From the IMG/VR virus record IMGVR_UViG_3300042885_001472: 64,000 nucleotides of DNA. One strand, given 5' to 3'. The first letter of the stretch is position 1, and each line of letters starts with the position of its first letter. This document shows, in pieces, positions 4,864-35,017 of this stretch. The notes under the pieces are model-generated. The model was not told the DNA's origin. It did not search any database and saw nothing but the letters and a program-made list of their open reading frames with translations. This DNA is from a virus. Lineage: Duplodnaviria > Caudoviricetes. A program made the translations under genes and the position numbers.

Positions 4864-5451
4864 ATGATAAAAATATTATATATATTCCTAATACTTTACC
4901 CCACCATATTATTTTCTCAATTAAGAGATTCCGTTAAAATTAAAACCCCTATCTTTGAGATTATATATAGTGAAATTAAAGAAAGTCCCCTATTGGTGAA
5001 ATACCATGTTGAATGTCCTATGGGAACTATTCCAAGAACTGGTATGAATTTCTATGGTAATGATTCAATCCATACATCTGACGATTTAGATTACATTAAT
5101 AATGTTTACGATAAAGGACATATGGCCCCAGCGGCTGATTTTAATTGTACCAAGGAACTATTAAAACAAACATTTACCTATTTAAATTGTGTACTACAAA
5201 ACCAGTATTTAAATCGAGGTGTTTGGAAAATGTTGGAGATACAAGAAAGATTGTGGGCGAAGAATGATGATGTTGATGTAACTATTGAAATTAAATTTAA
5301 TAAAACTTGTAAAAAATTGGTCTCCGGAGCTGCAATCCCATTAGGATTTTATAAAACAATTAAATTAAAGAAAAAAAATAAAGTTTATAAGTACTATTTC
5401 CCAAATATAAAACCGGTAAAGGATAAATTTTTATATTATCAAATTAAATAG
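4864..5451 (+). CDS. secreted DNA/RNA non-specific endonuclease (NucA-like)
   Basis: YDKGHMAPAADF (DRGH-type) motif, QNQYLNRGVWKMLE, N-terminal signal peptide. Confidence 0.9.
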   Translation: MIKILYIFLILYPTILFSQLRDSVKIKTPIFEIIYSEIKESPLLVKYHVECPMGTIPRTGMNFYGNDSIHTSDDLDYINNVYDKGHMAPAADFNCTKELLKQTFTYLNCVLQNQYLNRGVWKMLEIQERLWAKNDDVDVTIEIKFNKTCKKLVSGAAIPLGFYKTIKLKKKNKVYKYYFPNIKPVKDKFLYYQIK

Positions 5452-5463
5452 ATATTTATTGTT

Positions 5464-6366
5464 ATGAAAATTATCATTACAGAATCTCAATATGAATTAC
5501 TAAACGAACAATTAGCTAAATACATTGGTAAAGGTATTGGTAAATTATTTAAATCAACACCAAAGGTTATTAAGTCAATTACACCGGAAATTAAAACATT
5601 AAATAGTGAATTATATAGAGTAATTCCACCTCAATATTTAAAAAACGAAAAAGAAGTTTCTTTATATATTTCCAGATTAAAAAGTCTTAATCAAGATTTA
5701 AATAAAATAAATGTGGATTACATAAAAAAATATGGACAAAAAGCGTATGATGATATTTTAATAAATTTTATTCTTGGTGGTTCTAACGAGAAAACTTTTT
5801 TAAATACATTAAAGAATGTGAAAAACCCAAATATAAGATTAAAACCCATTTTAGGTTTAGGTCGAGAACATTATGTATTTGAATCGGTATTATACCCTAA
5901 TAAAATTATTAAAGTTGAATCATCTCCTGGTACTATTAATAAATGGTATAGTATTTTTAAAAGTAGACCTGATATTTTTCCAGTAATGTTTAAAACTTTA
6001 AAAGTAACTGGTAAGGAAGGTGAAAAATTAATGGGTGTTGTTTTGGAAAGATTAGATACTTCAAAATTCATAAAATTATGGGGTGAAATTGAATCTGAAA
6101 TGTATCCACTTTTTAAAAATTTACCAATATCAGAAAGAGAAGTTTCATTGGAAGGTATTGTCAAATATATTAAAACCCCTAAAGTGAGAAAACAATGGGT
6201 AGAACTTTTAAATTTTACAAAAAAAGAAAAGCCTAATTTAACTCGAAGTATTGATGAGTTTTCAAAGATGGTGAATGAATTATATAAAATAACACCAAAT
6301 CCTGACATTAGAAAATTTAATTTTGGTTATGATGATAAAGGTGTTTTAAAATGTTTAGATATTTAA
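5464..6366 (+). CDS. protein kinase-like protein with an MKIIITESQ leader
   Basis: Gly-loop ILGLGREHYVF, IIKV lysine, GVVLERL hinge, catalytic loop PDIRKFN, terminal LDI. Confidence 0.65.
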   Translation: MKIIITESQYELLNEQLAKYIGKGIGKLFKSTPKVIKSITPEIKTLNSELYRVIPPQYLKNEKEVSLYISRLKSLNQDLNKINVDYIKKYGQKAYDDILINFILGGSNEKTFLNTLKNVKNPNIRLKPILGLGREHYVFESVLYPNKIIKVESSPGTINKWYSIFKSRPDIFPVMFKTLKVTGKEGEKLMGVVLERLDTSKFIKLWGEIESEMYPLFKNLPISEREVSLEGIVKYIKTPKVRKQWVELLNFTKKEKPNLTRSIDEFSKMVNELYKITPNPDIRKFNFGYDDKGVLKCLDI

Positions 6367-27815: not shown

Positions 27816-28228
27816 GAAAAATATACTTAGATGATGTAAGAACTCCAGAAGATCCTACCTGGACAGTAGTCCGAAATTATAACGAATTTACTGATGTAAT
27901 AGAAGAATTTGGTTTAGATACAATCGATCAAATCTCTTTAGATCACGATTTAGGTGATAGCGCAATGAAAGAGTACTTCAATAACGTACATCCTAATTAT
28001 TGTTTGAATTATGACAACATCACCGAAAAGACTGGTATGGATTGTGTTAAATGGTTGGTTGAGCTGTGTTTAGATAACAACCTCACTCTACCTTTAATAA
28101 CTGTACATTCAGCAAATCCTATAGGAAGTGCTAATATGATGGGTTACATCAATAACTTCTTTATGAATACAAAACGTCCTCAAAACTGCGTAAGAGTTAA
28201 AATTCCACATACAATAAAAAGAGACTAA
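27812..28228 (+). CDS. cyclic-phosphate-processing receiver (REC) domain protein
   Basis: IYLDDVRTP, ISLDHDLG, TGMD, VHSANPIG. Confidence 0.85.
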   Translation: MRKIYLDDVRTPEDPTWTVVRNYNEFTDVIEEFGLDTIDQISLDHDLGDSAMKEYFNNVHPNYCLNYDNITEKTGMDCVKWLVELCLDNNLTLPLITVHSANPIGSANMMGYINNFFMNTKRPQNCVRVKIPHTIKRD

Positions 28229-28229
28229 T

Positions 28230-28559
28230 ATGGAAGAAATAATTTTAGGGGGAGGTTACACTTGTAGCGTATGTGGTCAATACCAAAGAACCTCCGCTTT
28301 ATGTTATCATAATAATAATTTAATACCGGAAGATGTGGACATTGATAATACTAATACGGAACAAACAGCGATAGAATGGTTTACTGAAATAACAACACAA
28401 CTTGGTTACGTATCAACAGATATACTTGAACAAGCCAAAGAAATGGAAAAACAACATCTTTGTAAAATGTACATTCAAGGGAGAAAAGACAATCACTTAG
28501 ATTACTATCCAGAAAAACACGCTAACGAAACCTATAACGAAATGTTTAAAAAAGACTAA
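28230..28559 (+). CDS. hypothetical protein
   Basis: ORF track; N-terminal CxxC. Confidence 0.6.
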   Translation: MEEIILGGGYTCSVCGQYQRTSALCYHNNNLIPEDVDIDNTNTEQTAIEWFTEITTQLGYVSTDILEQAKEMEKQHLCKMYIQGRKDNHLDYYPEKHANETYNEMFKKD

Positions 28560-28560
28560 T

Positions 28561-28896
28561 ATGAAAACATACATATTAAATATGACACTCTCATCACCAA
28601 AAAACATTGAGGAAAGTGAAATCTTAGACAAATTAGTTCAATTTGCGGAAGATAATAATTACCTATTAGGAGGAGGACTTCAATTGGTGGATGAGATTAA
28701 TCCCAAAGACCATTGTAATTATAGTGGTTTACCTTCACCATCAGCTTACGATAAGACTAATATGGAAGAAGAAGTAATTTGTCCAAATTGTGATAATAAA
28801 GAAAATTTTCATTTTAATTATGATTATAATGATGTTAACTTACCAATTATAGATATATTATGTAATACATGTGGGACTTTTTTTAAAATAAATTAA
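28561..28896 (+). CDS. hypothetical protein, apparent fusion with a C-terminal Zn ribbon
   Basis: Internal MEEEVICPNC..CNTC after a repeated AGACTAATATG junction. Confidence 0.6.
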   Translation: MKTYILNMTLSSPKNIEESEILDKLVQFAEDNNYLLGGGLQLVDEINPKDHCNYSGLPSPSAYDKTNMEEEVICPNCDNKENFHFNYDYNDVNLPIIDILCNTCGTFFKIN

Positions 28897-28897
28897 T

Positions 28898-29104
28898 ATG
28901 GAAACAACGATGAAAAATCATTTAGAATGGTTAAAGGGTAGAATGGTGGTAACCCCACAAATGGAAGAGGAACTACTTGAACAAGAAAAACGACAGATTA
29001 TTGACGCTTATAGTCAAGGTTTAAATGATTGGATTACTACAGATATGAGTATCAAAACAATTAATAAAGTGTCAGAACAATATTATAACGAAACATTTAA
29101 ATAA
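28898..29104 (+). CDS. hypothetical protein
   Basis: ORF track. Confidence 0.6.
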   Translation: METTMKNHLEWLKGRMVVTPQMEEELLEQEKRQIIDAYSQGLNDWITTDMSIKTINKVSEQYYNETFK

Positions 29105-29111
29105 GATTAGT

Positions 29112-29357
29112 ATGGAAGATAAACCAAAATTAGAATCCGCGTCATTTGATTTTTCTCAAGGTGGTAATTGTGTATCAAGTAGTGATGAGGCTGAATTTTT
29201 AACTATACAATGTGAATCATCTTTAGGTATAGATCGGGATGGTGGGTGTTTTTTTATTTTAAAAACAGAAAAATGGTCAGTTGATTGTGAACAAGATTTA
29301 AAAGAACTATTTGATAGGATTAATACAATTGTTAAAAAAAATGAAAATGAAATATGA
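29112..29357 (+). CDS. hypothetical protein
   Basis: ORF track. Confidence 0.6.
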   Translation: MEDKPKLESASFDFSQGGNCVSSSDEAEFLTIQCESSLGIDRDGGCFFILKTEKWSVDCEQDLKELFDRINTIVKKNENEI

Positions 29358-29602
29358 AAAAAACTAAATTATCTTTAATCAATCACGAAGGAGATTGTCT
29401 TTGGGCGATACGTTCCGGTGATGATGTGGTTGTTTATGATCAATGGGAAGATCTTGTTGAGATTTTAAATGTAGAAAAATTCTGTTTATGGTTGGATGGT
29501 GAAACCGGCCTTACCGATTCACACGGAAAAACCTGGTACTGGACAAAAGAAAGTAGAGAGGCTAAACCAAGTATGTGGAAATTGATTAATTTTTTGAAAT
29601 AA
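29354..29602 (+). CDS. hypothetical protein
   Basis: ORF track. Confidence 0.6.
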   Translation: MKKTKLSLINHEGDCLWAIRSGDDVVVYDQWEDLVEILNVEKFCLWLDGETGLTDSHGKTWYWTKESREAKPSMWKLINFLK

Positions 29603-29604
29603 TT

Positions 29605-29635
29605 TTTGTTTTATAATTAATAATTCTTATATTTG
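29605..29635 (+). promoter_or_regulatory. consensus Bacteroidota housekeeping promoter
   Basis: TTTG (29605-29608)-N19-TATATTTG (29628-29635). Confidence 0.75.
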
Positions 29636-29639
29636 TAAA

Positions 29640-29813
29640 ATGAATAAAGAAAAAGAGTTTGAAGTTATGTATGATAAAATTGTTGAGGAATCTAAAGGAA
29701 ACTTAACAAATCAAGAATATAGGGAATTAATTACATTAGAATATGTTGTCAGTCAAGGTTATGATAAACCAGGTGATACTGAACGATATATGGAGTTAAG
29801 TAAAAGAAGATAA
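29640..29813 (+). CDS. hypothetical protein (57 aa)
   Basis: Manual translation MNKEKEFEVMYDKI.. Confidence 0.55.
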   Translation: MNKEKEFEVMYDKIVEESKGNLTNQEYRELITLEYVVSQGYDKPGDTERYMELSKRR

Positions 29814-29814
29814 G

Positions 29815-30240
29815 ATGAATAAAGACCAAGAAGAATTATTGGATGAGGTTTATGAATCTTTTATGTTACAAAATGGATTCAAATACGAAAATGGACTATT
29901 GGTGGGTAAAATTGGTGGATTAAATCAACTAAATGTCACTTATTGGTTAACAAAGGAAGTGTTCATCAATAAATGTAAAACTAACCCAGAGTTCTCTGAA
30001 ACGTTGGATCTAAAGATTGAAGAACGAGAGTTAACTTTTGAAGAGAGATGGGAATTATCAAAAAAATATGGATACATAAAAAGCGATTGTGAAATACCTT
30101 CACCAGATTCGGTTTATATGGGGATTAATGAGAGAGAAACAATGATTGGTATCTGGAATGATCCAATAGTAAATAGTAATATCCCAACAAAATTAATCAC
30201 AATAACATATAACGATAAAACAATAGAAAGTTGTGAATAA
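29815..30240 (+). CDS. hypothetical protein
   Basis: ORF track. Confidence 0.65.
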   Translation: MNKDQEELLDEVYESFMLQNGFKYENGLLVGKIGGLNQLNVTYWLTKEVFINKCKTNPEFSETLDLKIEERELTFEERWELSKKYGYIKSDCEIPSPDSVYMGINERETMIGIWNDPIVNSNIPTKLITITYNDKTIESCE

Positions 30241-30409
30241 AGAATTAATATCTAAATTATTAAGGGCGTCTCAAGAGATTGATAGAACACCTAAAGCTGA
30301 ATATATTCATCTTTCCGAAGACTTTATACAAAAACAAGCTGACGAAAAGAACATATCATTTGATGAAATGGTAAAGATTATTGAAAACGAACTAAACCCA
30401 AAAAAATAG
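30233..30409 (+). CDS. hypothetical protein (58 aa)
   Basis: Manual translation from GTG: (M)NKELISKLLRASQEI.. Confidence 0.5.
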   Translation: MNKELISKLLRASQEIDRTPKAEYIHLSEDFIQKQADEKNISFDEMVKIIENELNPKK

Positions 30410-30415
30410 AAAGTT

Positions 30416-30562
30416 ATGAATAAAGAAGAAGCAAAAGACGAGCTAATCAAAGTATTAGAATCTCAAGTAATGGACTTATCAATGATGTCTAAAATTGAAT
30501 TAGGTGATGATGTAATCGCTGAACTTAAACGATTAAAAGAGATTATAAATGAAAAGGTTTAA
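30416..30562 (+). CDS. hypothetical protein (48 aa)
   Basis: Manual translation MNKEEAKDELIKVLESQ.. Confidence 0.55.
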   Translation: MNKEEAKDELIKVLESQVMDLSMMSKIELGDDVIAELKRLKEIINEKV

Positions 30563-30692
30563 TGACTTGGATGTGAGAATTCAAATGTTAATCATAGTAG
30601 GGCCTTTGATTGCTCTTTTAATATTTTCACACTACCAACATAGAAATTACCCTTATTGGATGGAAACAAGATATGTAAAAGTTATAAAATGA
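30549..30692 (+). CDS. small membrane protein, copy 1 (47 aa)
   Basis: MKRFNDLDVRIQMLIIVGPLIALLIFSHYQHRNYPYWMETRYVKVIK; duplicated at 31836. Confidence 0.65.
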   Translation: MKRFNDLDVRIQMLIIVGPLIALLIFSHYQHRNYPYWMETRYVKVIK

Positions 30693-30886
30693 ACAGACTC
30701 ATTAAAACACAAGAAGAACTTGAAGTATATCAAAAAGAAGTTCGAAACAGACAATATGAAACAAATCCTGTAACGGTTAGTTTTAGTGATGATTGGGATA
30801 ATATGGAACCTTATAATTTTGATATTGAGTATATAAAAGTTACAAGAACCGATAATCACGAAATTATAGAACGAGTAAAATATTAA
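30689..30886 (+). CDS. hypothetical protein
   Basis: ORF-track frame; start moved to the ATGA overlap at 30689. Confidence 0.55.
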   Translation: MNRLIKTQEELEVYQKEVRNRQYETNPVTVSFSDDWDNMEPYNFDIEYIKVTRTDNHEIIERVKY

Positions 30887-30887
30887 A

Positions 30888-31292
30888 ATGAAAGTAATAC
30901 AAGTATATAAGCCATTACAAGATAGTAATACCGAGTTAGAAAAATTGGAACTTGTTGAGTATATTACAAAGACAGAGGATGATTTTAAAAATCCCGGTAC
31001 TATAACAACAAGTGTACATAAAAGAATCCCTTACTGGTGTGTTAAATCAGAAATGTTAAAACCAAATGAAACTTATCAAGAATGGTTAAAAAGAAAAAAA
31101 GAAGCTATTGAATACGCAAAAGAACATTCAACCTCAATTAAAGATGTTGAAGGAATTTATTTCTATGATATACAAGCAATAGGTCTAATAGTAGATGGAT
31201 GGGATGAAAATAATGAAATAAAAATATCTAAGGATAAATTTGGTATGATGGTTAGATATGATTACATTTATAGAGATAATTTAAAAAAATGA
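30888..31292 (+). CDS. hypothetical protein
   Basis: ORF track. Confidence 0.6.
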   Translation: MKVIQVYKPLQDSNTELEKLELVEYITKTEDDFKNPGTITTSVHKRIPYWCVKSEMLKPNETYQEWLKRKKEAIEYAKEHSTSIKDVEGIYFYDIQAIGLIVDGWDENNEIKISKDKFGMMVRYDYIYRDNLKK

Positions 31293-31453
31293 ACAAACTA
31301 GATAACACATATTCAATACCACTATATGAAAATGGTATTAAAACTGAATGGACTATAGATGGTATAGTTGGAGATGAAAAATATCAAAAATTAATATCAA
31401 CAGAAGGTAATCTACCTGTGTTAGTTAATGTTACTACAAAACAAGCAAAATGA
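31289..31453 (+). CDS. hypothetical protein (54 aa) with a thyA-like start MNKLDN
   Basis: Manual translation; ATGA overlaps at both ends. Confidence 0.6.
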   Translation: MNKLDNTYSIPLYENGIKTEWTIDGIVGDEKYQKLISTEGNLPVLVNVTTKQAK

Positions 31454-31596
31454 ACAACCTAGATAAACTGACAATAGATAAAGTGGATAAATTTCTTAAA
31501 GAATTGTCTGAGGCGAATGTTGGTATAAGAAGAAAGTTATTAGCTATGAAAAAATTTTTAGAGAAAGAAACTATATTATTAGATAAAAAATTGTAA
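31450..31596 (+). CDS. hypothetical protein (48 aa) with a thyA-like start MNNLDK
   Basis: Manual translation. Confidence 0.6.
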   Translation: MNNLDKLTIDKVDKFLKELSEANVGIRRKLLAMKKFLEKETILLDKKL

Positions 31597-31618
31597 TAAT
31601 GAACAACCTATATAAACA

Positions 31619-31849
31619 ATGAAAATCACATACGATAAAAGAACTTATAATATTGAAGATGGTGATAAGAAATATGAAGTTGTTCATATTGTAAAACACC
31701 CAAACAAAGAGTATGATACAGACACTTATTATTTCTATGAATATAGAGAAAGTGATATCCCAGATGCTTCTGGTACTTGGCATTTTGAACCATCTGAAGA
31801 ATTAGTAAATAAAATAAAAGATTATATTAGAGAATATGAAAAGGTTTAA
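31619..31849 (+). CDS. hypothetical protein
   Basis: ORF track; preceded by the 7-codon minigene MNNLYKQ (31599..31622). Confidence 0.6.
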   Translation: MKITYDKRTYNIEDGDKKYEVVHIVKHPNKEYDTDTYYFYEYRESDIPDASGTWHFEPSEELVNKIKDYIREYEKV

Positions 31850-31979
31850 TGACTTAGATGTGAGAATTCAAATGGTAATTATAGTACTACCTTTGATTGC
31901 TCTTTTTATATTTGCACACTACCAACATAGAAATGAACCTTATTGGATGGAAACAAGATACGTAAAAATTATAAAATGA
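31836..31979 (+). CDS. small membrane protein, copy 2 (47 aa)
   Basis: 12 mismatches in 144 nt versus 30549..30692. Confidence 0.65.
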   Translation: MKRFNDLDVRIQMVIIVLPLIALFIFAHYQHRNEPYWMETRYVKIIK

Positions 31980-32122
31980 ACAACCTAGATAAACACCTAT
32001 TACCAAAAGACATTGAACCTTTATTTGGACTTTAGGTGATATTTGAACTTAAAAAAATGTCAAAGAGTTATCAATCCAAAGTACTTAATGAAATTAAAAA
32101 CGGAATATATCCAAAAAAATGA
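31976..32122 (+). pseudogene. small ORF with an MNNLDK start, interrupted by an in-frame TAG
   Basis: TAG at 32033-32035; the frame then stays open to a TGA overlapping the next ATG. Confidence 0.45.
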
Positions 32123-32328
32123 ACAAACTAAATAAAGAACTAATAACACTAACAAAAAGTGATGTAATGTTTCTTATAGCAAGTGCTATGGGTTATGGAT
32201 GGAACGCGTCTGGTGGATATCGAGATGGAGAATTTGAAAAAATTCAAAAACGAAAAGAATTAGAAAAAGAAAATTTACTTAAATGGGCAACAACTATAAG
32301 TCAAAACAAATATGAACAACCTAGATAA
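32119..32328 (+). CDS. hypothetical protein with an MNKLNK start
   Basis: ORF track. Confidence 0.6.
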   Translation: MNKLNKELITLTKSDVMFLIASAMGYGWNASGGYRDGEFEKIQKRKELEKENLLKWATTISQNKYEQPR

Positions 32329-33523
32329 AAGTTACACAGACCTACTCCAAGACATCTTAGATAATGGAGTAACAAAAGATGACCGTACAGGTACAGGAAC
32401 AATCTCAGTATTCGGAAGACAAATACGTCATAAAATGAGTGATGGGTTTCCATTGATTACTACGAAACGAATTCCTTTTAGATTAGTGGTTACTGAACTT
32501 TTATGGTTCTTACGTGGTGATACTTCAATAGAGTATCTTTTAAAGAATGACTGCAATATATGGACAGGAGACGCTTATAAGAATTATATATTTAATTCAG
32601 AGTGGTTTCCAATTTCAAGTGTAACTGGTGGATTTATTGGAACTAAATCTGATAGTGATGAAATAATGACTCAAGATTTATTCATCAACAAAATCAAAAC
32701 AGATGATGAGTTTGCTAAGAAGTGGGGCGATTTAGGTCCTGTGTATGGTAAGCAATGGAGAAGTTGGGGTCCTATGATGAGAGATATTATTCCGTTAGAG
32801 ACTGGAGGATACGTCTATAAAGGACCAATAGACCAAATAGCAAACCTAATCAACGACCTTAAAACAAATCCTGATTCAAGACGCTTAATGGTTAACGCTT
32901 GGAATGTTGGCGAATTAGACCAAATGGTTCTTCCACCTTGTCATTATGGGTTCCAGCTTTACACAAGAGAGTTAACTGAACGTGAAAGAAATTCACATTC
33001 AATAGCATGTGATGTTAGAGGACAATTTCGTACAATGTTTTCCGAAGAAGAATTAAATGAATTTAATGTACCCAAAAGAGTAATCTCCCTAATGTTTAAT
33101 ATGAGAAGTACCGATGTTGGACTTGGCCTTGGATTCAATTTGGCCTCATACGGATTATTATTGATGATGATTGCTAAACAAGTTAATATGGTTCCTAACG
33201 AACTGATTTATAATGGAGGTGATGTACATTTATATTCAAATCATATTGAACAAGCAAAGGAACAGATTGGTAGAGAAATGAATCACGATGAAAAAGTTAA
33301 ATACGCTCGTTCATTGTATGGGGATAAAGATTGGTGGAATATCAATGATGATAGAGTTTTAGAGATATTACATTCTAACAAAAGAACAAGAGAACCATAT
33401 CCGTTACCAACAGTAAAATTATCTGATAGAGTTGTGAATGATATTTCAGAATATACTTTGGATGATATTGTTTTAGAAAATTATCAATCACATCCATCCA
33501 TAAAAATGCCGTTATCTAATTAA
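32312..33523 (+). CDS. thyA: thymidylate synthase ThyA with insertions
   Basis: DRTGTGT, ELLWFLRG, LGPVYGKQWR, PDSRR, LPPCH, RSTDVGLGLGFN, GDVHLYSNH. Confidence 0.97.
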   Translation: MNNLDKSYTDLLQDILDNGVTKDDRTGTGTISVFGRQIRHKMSDGFPLITTKRIPFRLVVTELLWFLRGDTSIEYLLKNDCNIWTGDAYKNYIFNSEWFPISSVTGGFIGTKSDSDEIMTQDLFINKIKTDDEFAKKWGDLGPVYGKQWRSWGPMMRDIIPLETGGYVYKGPIDQIANLINDLKTNPDSRRLMVNAWNVGELDQMVLPPCHYGFQLYTRELTERERNSHSIACDVRGQFRTMFSEEELNEFNVPKRVISLMFNMRSTDVGLGLGFNLASYGLLLMMIAKQVNMVPNELIYNGGDVHLYSNHIEQAKEQIGREMNHDEKVKYARSLYGDKDWWNINDDRVLEILHSNKRTREPYPLPTVKLSDRVVNDISEYTLDDIVLENYQSHPSIKMPLSN

Positions 33524-33578
33524 TTTTTTCAAAATTTCCGATACTTATATTAAAGGATAAACCTTAAAGTAAATCAAT

Positions 33579-34412
33579 ATGAAGAAGTTTTTAGTGTATG
33601 AAATCAAAAACAATATAAACGGTAAATCTTATATCGGGCAATATAGTGGATTATCATTTGAGAAATATTTTGGGAGTGGAAAGTTGATTAAGTTAGCAAT
33701 AAAAAAATACGGATTAGAAAATTTCTCTAAAACTATTTTAGAGGAGTGTTCTAATAAAGACGAGTTGAATGAAAAAGAAATTTTTTGGATTGATAAACTC
33801 AAAACAATTGAGAACGGTTATAATTTAACAGAAGGTGGCACTGGTGGAGACCTATCTGAATTTATTAAGTATGATGAGAGTTGGGTTGAAAACCAAAGAC
33901 TCTCAACAAAAAAGTATTGGGACAATATAAATGATGATGAAAGAAAAATAAGAAGTGAAAATGTGTTTGGTGAGAAAAATGGGATGTATGGTAAAGACGG
34001 ATTTTGGAAGGGTAAAAAAATACCTAAAGAAATCGTTAAAAAGTCATTAGATAATAGAAGAAGTTATAAAAAAGAACTGAACCCAAATTGGAAAGGGGGT
34101 TTAACTTACGTCTATTGTGAATGTGGTAAAAGAATAGGTTACGGACACACTCATTGTAATAAGTGTAGACACCGAAGTGAAAATAATAATCCATTCTTTG
34201 GTAAAAAACATACTGAAACATATAAGAAAAAATCGTCAGATAGAATGATGGGTGTTTATAATGGAAAAAAAAACATACCAATAATAATTGATGGTGTTGA
34301 GTTCAGGTCGGCAGGAGAGGCGTCAAAAGTTCTAAATATTCCTATGGTAACTATAAGGTGGAGAGTTAAAAGTAAAAATAAAAAATTTGACAATTACAAA
34401 TATAAAGATTAA
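33579..34412 (+). CDS. free-standing GIY-YIG homing endonuclease (Seg-like) with NUMOD3-type motifs
   Basis: VYEIKN..KSYIGQ..YFGSG..E..WI..GYNL; NGMYGK, NPFFGKKHTE; ATACTTAT late-motif variant at 33541. Confidence 0.9.
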   Translation: MKKFLVYEIKNNINGKSYIGQYSGLSFEKYFGSGKLIKLAIKKYGLENFSKTILEECSNKDELNEKEIFWIDKLKTIENGYNLTEGGTGGDLSEFIKYDESWVENQRLSTKKYWDNINDDERKIRSENVFGEKNGMYGKDGFWKGKKIPKEIVKKSLDNRRSYKKELNPNWKGGLTYVYCECGKRIGYGHTHCNKCRHRSENNNPFFGKKHTETYKKKSSDRMMGVYNGKKNIPIIIDGVEFRSAGEASKVLNIPMVTIRWRVKSKNKKFDNYKYKD

Positions 34413-34420
34413 ATTAATAT

Positions 34421-34630
34421 ATGATTAGATTAAAATTAGTAAATCCAGTTGGTGACATCATTAAAGATATTGAATTGTTAGAATGGACAGATATTGAAAG
34501 TTTCATAGCGAGTCATAGATTTATATTAGAATCTAATGATGGTTCAATATTTAATTATTCATCAAAAGAATGGATGGAATTACCCCCCTCTGAATCTCAC
34601 CCCACCATTAAACCCCCCCTATCTAATTAA
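34421..34630 (+). CDS. hypothetical protein ending in a copy of the ThyA C-terminus
   Basis: Ends ESHPTIKPPLSN versus ThyA QSHPSIKMPLSN. Confidence 0.65.
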   Translation: MIRLKLVNPVGDIIKDIELLEWTDIESFIASHRFILESNDGSIFNYSSKEWMELPPSESHPTIKPPLSN

Positions 34631-34642
34631 AAATATAAAATT

Positions 34643-34792
34643 ATGTGGAATATTGAAATGATAAAACAAGTAGATAACTATTATATAGTTATGACACCGG
34701 ATGGGGAAACTCATTGTATTGATAACACAACTTTTGAACTATTTAAAAAACAAAATAGAATTATTGGGGTTATTAATGAAGTTGACATTTAA
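34643..34792 (+). CDS. hypothetical protein (49 aa)
   Basis: Manual translation MWNIEMIKQVDNYYIVM.. Confidence 0.5.
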   Translation: MWNIEMIKQVDNYYIVMTPDGETHCIDNTTFELFKKQNRIIGVINEVDI

Positions 34793-34816
34793 AAATATTT
34801 TAACTATATTTATTTT

Positions 34817-35017
34817 ATGAAAGAAAGGATATTTGAATGGTTAAAAATTATATTATTTTTTATGGTCGCCATTTTAGTGATTGGATTTTTACAAAGTTTA
34901 GGTACTGAAGATCCCCACGAAATAACCATAGATGGTAAAAAATATATTCGATCAAAAGAATATGTTGGTGATGGTCATTATCAAATAATAATTACACCCA
35001 AAGATTCCACAAAATGA
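34817..35017 (+). CDS. small membrane-anchored protein
   Basis: N-terminal TM helix. Confidence 0.6.
   Translation: MKERIFEWLKIILFFMVAILVIGFLQSLGTEDPHEITIDGKKYIRSKEYVGDGHYQIIITPKDSTK

Follow-up and report, generated by a model that had tools for sequence, protein, structure and literature searches.

In a 64,000-nucleotide (nt) stretch of DNA from a tailed phage (Caudoviricetes; IMG/VR record IMGVR_UViG_3300042885_001472), here called the window, the first codons of thyA recur at the starts of a series of small, unrelated genes packed directly upstream of thyA. The repeated starts are accompanied by mosaic identities of the array genes to those of other phages, by breakpoints of homology at the repeats and by recurrence of the same arrangement in other phages. 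The phage is an uncultured freshwater giant phage with 28% GC; contigs bearing its proteins reach 294,686 nt, its closest named relative is Flavobacterium phage immuto, whose thyA DNA is about 72% identical, and its host is likely to be a Flavobacterium. We consider it fairly probable that this is a hyperplastic region in which the 5' end of thyA is duplicated by microhomology joins and is then reused as a linker and as a translation start. The recombination chemistry, the role of endonucleases, transcription as an operon and translation from the copied start are parts of this scenario that we infer from the sequence.

Results

The first codons of thyA are repeated at six gene starts

The degenerate 17-mer ATGAACAAMCTADATAA has six exact matches in the window, all on the plus strand (31289, 31450, 31599, 31976, 32119 and 32312), and all of them are gene starts, the last being that of thyA itself. 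Allowing up to two mismatches on both strands of the 64-kb window added no further match, and dinucleotide-preserving shuffles gave a mean of 0.67 and a maximum of 3 matches. Three of the starts (31450, 31976 and 32312) share the exact 18-mer ATGAACAACCTAGATAAA. Repeat finding showed that similarity between the copies spans about -5 to +18 relative to the ATG and then ends. A seventh, degenerate copy (ATGAACAGACTCATTAAA) lies at 30689, and with it the motif occupies only 30689-32329. At four starts (31289, 31450, 31976 and 32119) the preceding stop codon overlaps the start as ATGA; the start at 31599 is preceded by TAATA, and that of thyA is overlapped over 17 nt by an open reading frame (ORF) in another frame. 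The 18-mer carries stops in both other frames (TGA, TAG, TAA) and therefore terminates any ORF that runs into it. Apart from one paralogous pair, a duplicated gene of 47 amino acids (aa) described below, the gene bodies of the array have no mutual BLASTP similarity. Nine or more contigs, assembled from independent JGI, ENA and Logan samples, show 100% identity in whatever part of 29600-33600 they cover, and three cover all of it; the array is therefore not an assembly artefact.

Codon usage points to copying at the level of DNA. AAC accounts for 20% of Asn codons and CTA for 6% of Leu codons, and the probability of AAC-AAC-CTA given N-N-L is 0.0024. Because this codon series is rare in a sequence of 28% GC, the start copies are DNA-level copies by descent rather than convergent peptides. 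From the copy nearest to thyA to the farthest, the mismatches number 2, 0, 1, 0, 2 and 5; as they do not increase steadily with distance, the array yields no simple age gradient.

Chance or paralogy, that is, a preference for MNK or MNN N-termini in an AT-rich genome or the divergence of tandem duplicates, is scarcely credible as the origin of the pattern. Many window genes do start with MK or MN, and neighbouring non-paralogous genes share slightly more of their first 15 coding nt than random pairs do (6.79 versus 6.26, p = 0.004, thyA array excluded). However, this explanation is contradicted by six matches within 1 kb against 0.67 expected, by rare codons common to copies whose gene bodies are unrelated, and by orthologous cassettes that occur in other contexts with breakpoints at the repeat. 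Further clusters of shared starts were noted, namely ATGGAAAATAA four times (24273, 26015, 26240 and 27372) and junctions of the type (G/A)ACTAATATG(G/A)AA, also four times (28217-28235, 28548-28566, 28885-28903 and 29093-29119).

A first-pass annotation, made by a model from the letters of the window, had described six starts that repeat the first codons of thyA, an 18-mer common to three of them, ATGA overlaps at four, a seven-codon minigene MNNLYKQ at 31599 and unrelated gene bodies. All of this is borne out, including the minigene (31599-31622), whose TGA overlaps the next ATG at 31619. The background frequency of the N-terminal codons, which it had wished to see examined, reveals no codon-usage effect, and similar starts, whose equal frequency across the genome it had named as evidence to the contrary, are confined to the array within the window.

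Array genes are mosaic, with breakpoints at the repeated starts

For comparison, about 120 related loci were collected from IMG/VR by a protein-based search and by a search for the exact 18-mer; L numbers denote these loci and F numbers are our gene labels. Several blocks of the array are nearly identical to sequences on contigs whose own thyA has diverged much further from that of the window (Table 1). The edges of the high-identity blocks, 12 in all, fall between -17 and +19 nt relative to a start codon: homology breaks exactly after the repeat at 31468 and 32136 and just past it at 31307, whereas the break at 31840 coincides with ATGAA. The cassette at 31971-32136 has F47 as its right neighbour in the window, an 84-aa ORF in L122 and thyA in L125, with the same start sequence each time. 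The F4 cassette, which lies five genes from thyA in the window, stands directly before thyA in L101 and L060, where it has 15 extra N-terminal codons. Its junction in the window consists of GATAAC joined to ACATAT, and thyA alleles read GATAAA-ACATAC, which suggests a join at 5-6 nt of microhomology. Cassette proteins are conserved from phage to phage except at their N- and C-terminal ends, which differ according to the adjoining gene. A metagenome scan for the end of F4 together with the 18-mer matched only contig L060. Alignment of the locus across phages, which the first-pass annotation had proposed as a way of detecting cassette gain or loss, thus yielded variable content and cassettes that break at the repeated starts.

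The only paralogous pair of the array forms a direct repeat (30549-30706 and 31836-31993; 158 nt, 89% identical) that comprises the 47-aa gene and the start following it. At the site of copy 1, F1 and F13 are adjacent and uninterrupted in L122, L101 and L060; copy 2 and the next cassette sit between F46 and F47, which adjoin in L038. For both copies the break lies at the ATGA or ATGAA of a stop/start overlap. Homologues were found in five further metagenomic contexts; exact-pattern scans of IMG/VR for the 47-aa gene gave no match. Elsewhere the gene has three left neighbours (F1, F46 and a radical-SAM gene) and six different right neighbours, which include thyA (L124), the C-terminal end of F13 fused in frame (L125-L127), an 11-codon mini-ORF MNKLNKE (L128) and F47 (L129). 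The L124 gene runs into the thyA start, which explains why the direct repeat of the window extends into the 18-mer. In L125 (975-1160), as in L126 and L127, the ATGA stop is lost and an in-frame fusion to the last 14 residues of F13 gives a protein of 61 aa, which one source names a ComK competence factor, probably by mis-annotation.

The thyA start is the source of the repeat and is copied in other phages

The N-terminus of ThyA in immuto is MSMNNLDKQY. MNNLDK heads thyA both in immuto and in dozens of IMG/VR phages and so represents the gene's own N-terminus. Dozens of phages with a ThyA only some 50-55% identical to that of the window likewise have the 18-mer at the start of thyA, a wide occurrence that reflects a conserved peptide with one common allele. 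Conservation of the 18-mer at the nucleotide level beyond what the peptide needs was considered and rejected, synonymous identity being 0.49-0.78 in codons 2-5 versus 0.3-0.6 in later codons.

A conserved 81-aa gene (29112-29357 in the window) forms the far boundary of a variable interval before thyA. This interval measures 1.1 kb in immuto versus 2.95 kb in the window, and the four small genes that immuto has there are unlike those of the window and lack the repeat. Among 57 distinct loci, gene content upstream of thyA varies widely; a loose backbone F1-F13-...-thyA is kept, and cassettes with thyA-like starts are always on the thyA side, next to thyA. Fixed gene content across relatives, the other observation that the first-pass annotation had said would speak against its proposal, is therefore not what we find: content between the 81-aa gene and thyA differs greatly.

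Extra copies of the thyA start, no more than 1.5 kb upstream and on the same strand, are present at 16 of 56 distinct thyA loci, a share that is inflated because the sample was gathered partly with the exact 18-mer. They amount to 24 in 81.6 kb (0.29 per kb) versus 2 in 347.7 kb of control sequence (0.006 per kb), a difference of about 50-fold, and the window has the most extra copies (five) of all 56 loci. In about 20 different junctions the thyA-derived prefix is 18-57 nt long (6-19 codons). Some 14 junctions are in-frame fusions to ORFs of 48-140 aa, and some 8 are short remnants of 6-23 codons whose end coincides with the next ATG or just precedes it. Many other phages thus have a gene inserted directly before thyA that is preceded by, or fused to, the first 6-19 codons of thyA; thyA 5' fragments longer than 19 codons were not seen upstream of thyA among the collected loci. 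Two further kinds of start-like sequence lie 30 nt before thyA: in L046, L066, L075, L113, L117 and L070 the end of F3 resembles an old, out-of-frame copy of the thyA start (about 16 of 21 nt), and in L019 and L044 there is a GTG-started remnant reading NKLDKQ and a stop.

Expression signals and the case for retained function

The genes from 29640 to thyA are packed without spacers. A scan for sigma-70-type promoters gave 34 sites versus 38.3 expected, none of them tied to the repeats, and a scan for TANNTTTG-N8-ATG stayed at chance level. On the plus strand between about 27.3 and 34.8 kb, ATATTTRT has a single copy, at 29629, and the one terminator-like site in 6 kb lies inside a gene body. 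Since the genes are spacer-free, no internal promoter or terminator stands out and ATATTTRT occurs only at 29629, the region from 29640 to thyA would probably be transcribed as one operon from about 29630. It is plausible that the cassettes inherit the expression signal of thyA, given the in-frame fusions and the lack of a promoter motif inside the array. The RNA around the exact copies is unstructured (minimum free energy 0 kcal/mol over 50 nt), and other gene starts are equally unstructured. The 18-mer would serve as an initiation region that lies in unstructured RNA, ends the upstream ORF and starts the next. Elsewhere in the window, ATATTTAT is fixed 4-6 nt before the ATG of many genes (for example 4852, 5452, 6387, 8418, 12719, 14183, 41205 and 54728), which points to a class of phage promoters whose leaders are very short or absent.

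These observations bear on the view that the sequence is kept for its function, as an initiation region or as a translational operator shared with thyA in a non-Shine-Dalgarno host, and that recombination is incidental. The unstructured RNA of the exact copies would suit such a role, as would the cassettes' lack of own promoters and the structure of the junctions, of which 14 of about 22 are in-frame fusions to ORFs of at least 48 aa while the short remnants abut or overlap the next ATG. We nevertheless regard this view as improbable: the motif is missing from all other window genes, whose starts are just as unstructured, synonymous sites in codons 2-5 of thyA are only mildly more conserved than those in later codons, the length of the prefix varies, and the homology breakpoints indicate copying by descent.

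No attC-like hairpin or fixed crossover point at the repeats

No attC-like hairpins lie at or near the repeated starts, consistent inverted repeats are likewise lacking there, and an attC-like hairpin model for the array was rejected for want of hairpins at the starts. Near the array, in a window that was not exhaustively scanned, no tyrosine recombinase (IntI) was seen, and none of the junctions required one. Cassettes that lack promoters and all share one orientation would be expected if a tyrosine recombinase acted on the thyA-start motif as an attI- or attC-like site, but we consider such a capture very unlikely. Junction position is variable (prefixes of 18-57 nt) with no conserved core, hairpins are lacking, and the 47-aa gene is joined at plain ATGA overlaps, all of which argues against a site-specific reaction of the integron type; moreover, the same structures are found in many contigs that were retrieved through thyA alone. 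The term integron-like, which the first-pass annotation had used, can stand only as an analogy, as there are neither attC-like hairpins nor a fixed crossover.

Endonucleases beside thyA and duplication of its 3' end

An I-TevI-like endonuclease gene directly follows thyA (Table 1). It is 92.8% identical to copies that stand beside thyA genes only 69% identical to that of the window. Copies of the thyA 3' end (33486-33523 and 34593-34630; 38 nt, 74% identical, 10 of the last 16 residues the same) bracket it, so that a duplicated thyA 3' end mirrors the pattern at the 5' end. In L038, the closest relative with the upstream region, this endonuclease is absent; thyA is followed there by 73 nt (94.5% identical) that correspond to the 3' end of the endonuclease gene and to the start of the next gene. 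Diverged ORFs of 84-104 aa that resemble the C-terminus of ThyA lie downstream of thyA in several relatives.

Endonuclease genes also occur at the other end of thyA and within it. In L007 and L041, a thyA remnant of 19 codons is followed by a GIY-YIG/NUMOD3 gene and then by a thyA whose start allele differs; in L097 an endonuclease gene lies upstream of thyA. In L038 (4900-6888), a GIY-YIG-like gene of 242 aa (5259-5987) interrupts thyA and leaves ORFs of 106 and 304 aa. Rfam searches of three relatives with a split thyA detected only tRNAs and no group I intron; without such an intron the split thyA of L038 looks like a 'gene in pieces'. The 106-aa first piece is also present in several other relatives. 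An 18-residue stretch of F0, LTKEVFINKCKTNPEFSE (29947-30003), resembles MTQDLFINKIKTDDEFAK of ThyA (32666-32722; pairwise E = 6e-4), and in L038 the thyA-splitting endonuclease is situated just before the ThyA stretch that matches F0.

The endonuclease of the window is a possible source of double-strand breaks near thyA. It adjoins a conserved target gene and its flanks are mosaic, as in intronless homing. Repair of such breaks might even be the main driver of the array: a GIY-YIG enzyme would cut sensitive thyA alleles within about the first 60 nt, the right end would copy donor thyA together with its upstream DNA, and the left end would be rejoined at microhomology, leaving a remnant of 6-19 codons. 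The position of the I-TevI-like gene directly after thyA with the duplicated 3' end behind it, its mosaic identity (92.8% beside a 69% thyA), the endonuclease genes after the thyA remnant in L007 and L041 and upstream of thyA in L097, the split thyA of L038 and the constant limit of 57 nt on the 5' remnants would all fit. We find this extension doubtful, because endonuclease genes are absent from the surroundings of most junctions, no cleavage site is known, selection against longer ThyA fragments can explain the upper limit of the remnants, and the 47-aa cassette also moves to non-thyA junctions.

Organisation of the region

The genes and blocks of the region are listed in Table 1.

Table 1. 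Features of the thyA region and blocks of high identity to related loci
Feature	Position	Strand	Remarks
Promoter-like ATATTTGT	29629-29636	+	4 nt before first array gene; putative promoter, judged from sequence
Proximal, better conserved array part	29640-30562	+	ORFs 29640-29813, 29815-30240 (F0), 30233-30409 (F23, GTG start), 30416-30562 (F1)
MKRFNDL gene, copy 1	30549-30692	+	47 aa, membrane-like; inserted at the F1/F13 ATGA junction
F13	30689-30886	+	65 aa, MNRLIKTQ; degenerate start copy 30689-30706; 95% identical to L100 gene
ORFan	30888-31292	+	134 aa; stop overlaps first repeat as ATGA
Cassette 1 (F4 core)	31289-31453	+	54 aa; start repeat 31289-31305
Cassette 2 (ORFan)	31450-31596	+	48 aa; exact 18-mer 31450-31467
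thyA-start remnant	31599-31622	+	7 codons, MNNLYKQ and stop; TGA overlaps next gene's ATG
Cassette F46	31619-31849	+	76 aa; 97.9% (L038, 31599-31840); 98% (L125/L126, 31618-31976)
MKRFNDL gene, copy 2	31836-31979	+	47 aa; direct repeat with copy 1 continues to 31993
Cassette MNNLDKHLLPKD	31976-32122	+	exact 18-mer 31976-31993; 98.2% to L122 over 31971-32136
Cassette F47	32119-32328	+	69 aa; start repeat 32119-32135; ends at TAA inside thyA start
thyA	32312-33523	+	403 aa; PF00303, E = 3e-92
I-TevI-like GIY-YIG homing endonuclease	33579-34412	+	GIY-YIG, I-TevI zinc-finger and DNA-binding domains; directly after thyA
ORF	34421-34630	+	69 aa; last 16 residues copy ThyA C-terminus
Block shared with L100	30681-30886		95.1%; same-contig thyA 69%
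Block shared with L101/L060	31307-31468		96.9%; same-contig thyA 70-73%
Block shared with L038	31599-31840		97.9%; same-contig thyA 80-84%
Blocks shared with L125/L126	31618-31976, 31971-32136		98%, 97%; same-contig thyA 74%
Block shared with L122	31971-32136		98.2%; same-contig thyA 74%

A second family of starts, ATGAATAAAGA at 29640, 29815 and 30416 and GTGAATAAAGA at 30233, heads all ORFs of the proximal part. As a start-linker in the form AATAGAAAGTT(A/G)TGAATAAAGAA it heads four neighbouring genes (30217-30244, 30400-30427, 29640 and 29815), and in lake contigs foreign sequence is joined to the 29815 gene exactly at this linker. The remnant at 31599-31622, whose structure is also found in L038, probably acts as a coupling mini-cistron, judging by its overlap with the next gene; similar remnants of 6-11 codons occur in L100, L070, L097 and L128. 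An in-frame TAG (32033-32035) splits the 31976 cassette into 19 and 28 codons; L122 and L125 have TGG at this site and an intact 48-aa gene, and the cassette is either a fresh pseudogene or a read-through site. F47 corresponds to a gene that is longer, at 140 aa, in L038 and L129, and of which it is a shortened form. Searches of ten array proteins against Pfam and PHROGs returned no credible family, the sole match being NuA4, below the cutoff, and tblastn searches with F13 and F0 against cultured phages gave no match. The window contains no tRNA genes.

Discussion

Based on these observations, we propose the following hypothetical two-step scenario, in which (i) a join at microhomology, or one lacking homology, somewhere in the first 18-57 nt of thyA would connect the thyA start of one phage to DNA formerly upstream of the thyA of a co-infecting phage, leaving a copy of the thyA 5' end before the incoming gene and an intact thyA behind it, so that the copied start would either become the in-frame beginning of the new gene (start capture) or stay as a mini-ORF of 6-23 codons abutting or overlapping the new ATG; and (ii) the duplicated starts, together with the ubiquitous A-rich ATGA overlaps, would act as short homologous linkers at which cassettes could be exchanged, inserted or deleted between phages. 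Homing endonucleases beside thyA would plausibly supply the breaks. As a cassette would travel as a gene body with its linker, it would not need a promoter of its own. Many samples from 2016 to 2024 contain an invariant genotype, and one cassette has decayed by a nonsense mutation, which indicates a slow process whose events are rare on the ecological time scale.

The first-pass annotation had held that small genes are repeatedly inserted at the thyA translation start, each duplicating it. This holds in so far as relatives have inserted genes behind copies of 6-19 thyA codons, but it is too narrow, since the 47-aa gene also enters other ATGA junctions.

Several points weigh against the duplication and reuse of the thyA start as we propose it. 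No excision product, circle or deletion variant was seen, and the contigs from at least nine independent samples are 100% identical over the array. Lake contigs from four metagenome runs, examined over 29000-35000, carry the array without differences (one of them, for example, over 29000-32416); their joints had sides of 21-46 nt and none linked two repeat copies, although contigs cannot reveal rare forms. Exact-protein look-ups of three cassettes retrieved only contigs 100% identical to the window and no structural variants. The direction and order of events, insertion or deletion, are not readable from present-day arrangements. A length of 18 nt is short for efficient homologous recombination, and the arrangements could be independent illegitimate joins under selection. 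An endonuclease gene is found at the insertion in only 3 of about 20 junctions, and endonuclease involvement is circumstantial. The 31976 cassette carries a nonsense codon, and translation from copied starts is presumptive. That thyA remnants of more than 19 codons are lacking could be due to selection instead of mechanism, and the partial use of the 18-mer in gathering the loci must also be kept in mind.

The array can be compared with several known modes of gene acquisition. The PeSLs of T4-type phages are intergenic elements with about 100 bp conserved, comprising a sigma-70 promoter, a stem-loop terminator, a Shine-Dalgarno sequence and a start codon, and their mini-circles have been demonstrated (Arbiol et al. 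2010, PMC2839356; Comeau et al. 2014, PMC4122927). As with PeSLs, short repeats flank small ORFans in a hyperplastic region, the breakpoints of indels or replacements lie in the repeats, and the repeat would provide the expression signal of the downstream gene. In contrast to PeSLs, the repeat is short (18-23 nt), coding (ATG and five codons) and derived from a conserved metabolic gene, and the array has no promoter, stem-loop or intergenic DNA, so that it departs from PeSLs in each of these structural traits; mini-circles are known for PeSLs, whereas the thyA array is known here from assembled contigs.

Integrons consist of the integrase IntI, the attI site, attC cassettes and the Pc promoter. 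The thyA array shares with them promoter-less, single-gene cassettes in one orientation and at one place, with apparent reliance on a shared upstream signal. Unlike integrons, it has no attC hairpins and no fixed crossover, and its junctions lie inside coding sequence at variable positions. Free-standing homing endonucleases of T4-type phages that act by intronless homing include SegF, SegG and MobE, and nrdA of phage Aeh1 is reportedly a case of 'genes in pieces'. The array resembles intronless homing in that GIY-YIG genes lie beside or inside a gene of nucleotide metabolism, with mosaic flanks and adjoining partial duplicates of the target; it differs in that most cassettes are not endonucleases and that an array of six starts exceeds the scars of single insertions.

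Morons carry their own promoter and terminator. They belong to a picture of mosaic evolution, said to go back to Hendrix, Juhala and co-workers, in which illegitimate recombination is filtered at gene boundaries. Junctions of unrelated sequences at gene boundaries and the addition of small accessory genes between existing ones agree with this picture. In contrast to morons, the array genes have no promoter or terminator of their own, the newcomers take the first codons of their neighbour, and the same junction sequence recurs. In Cluster K mycobacteriophages, the SAS/ESAS is a 13-bp motif that lies 3-7 bp upstream of the start, contains a Shine-Dalgarno core and is spread over half the genome; a function as a recombination joint was not shown (Pope et al. 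2011, PMC3203893). Both SAS and the thyA motif are short, conserved and tied to the starts of many unrelated non-structural genes, whereas the thyA motif begins at the ATG, is restricted to one local array, is derived from thyA and marks homology breakpoints. On these comparisons, the array would best be described as a form of recombination-linker shuffling in phage hyperplastic regions that operates without promoter or hairpin, and its likeness to integrons would be functional only.

A more far-reaching possibility, which we put forward tentatively, is that the thyA 5' end is a general docking site in a large group of freshwater Bacteroidota phages, where bodies lacking promoter and start would circulate with the 18-nt linker, perhaps as mini-circles or through break repair, dock without a site-specific recombinase and be expressed from the copied initiation region. 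If true, the start codon of a housekeeping gene would form the basis of a functional counterpart of the integron that works without a recombinase.

In summary, the known routes by which phages acquire new small genes are morons, PeSL cassettes and integrons, and the thyA locus suggests another. This route would suit phages with non-Shine-Dalgarno hosts and spacer-less genes, in which the first codons of a conserved gene would be both the seam and the start of the newcomer. With about 20 separate junctions in 16 or more distinct metagenomic phage lineages, the pattern provides a data set for the study of microhomology length, frame and remnant length. For annotation, our results give a warning: identical N-termini on unrelated small phage proteins can be recombination scars rather than signal peptides or signs of paralogy.

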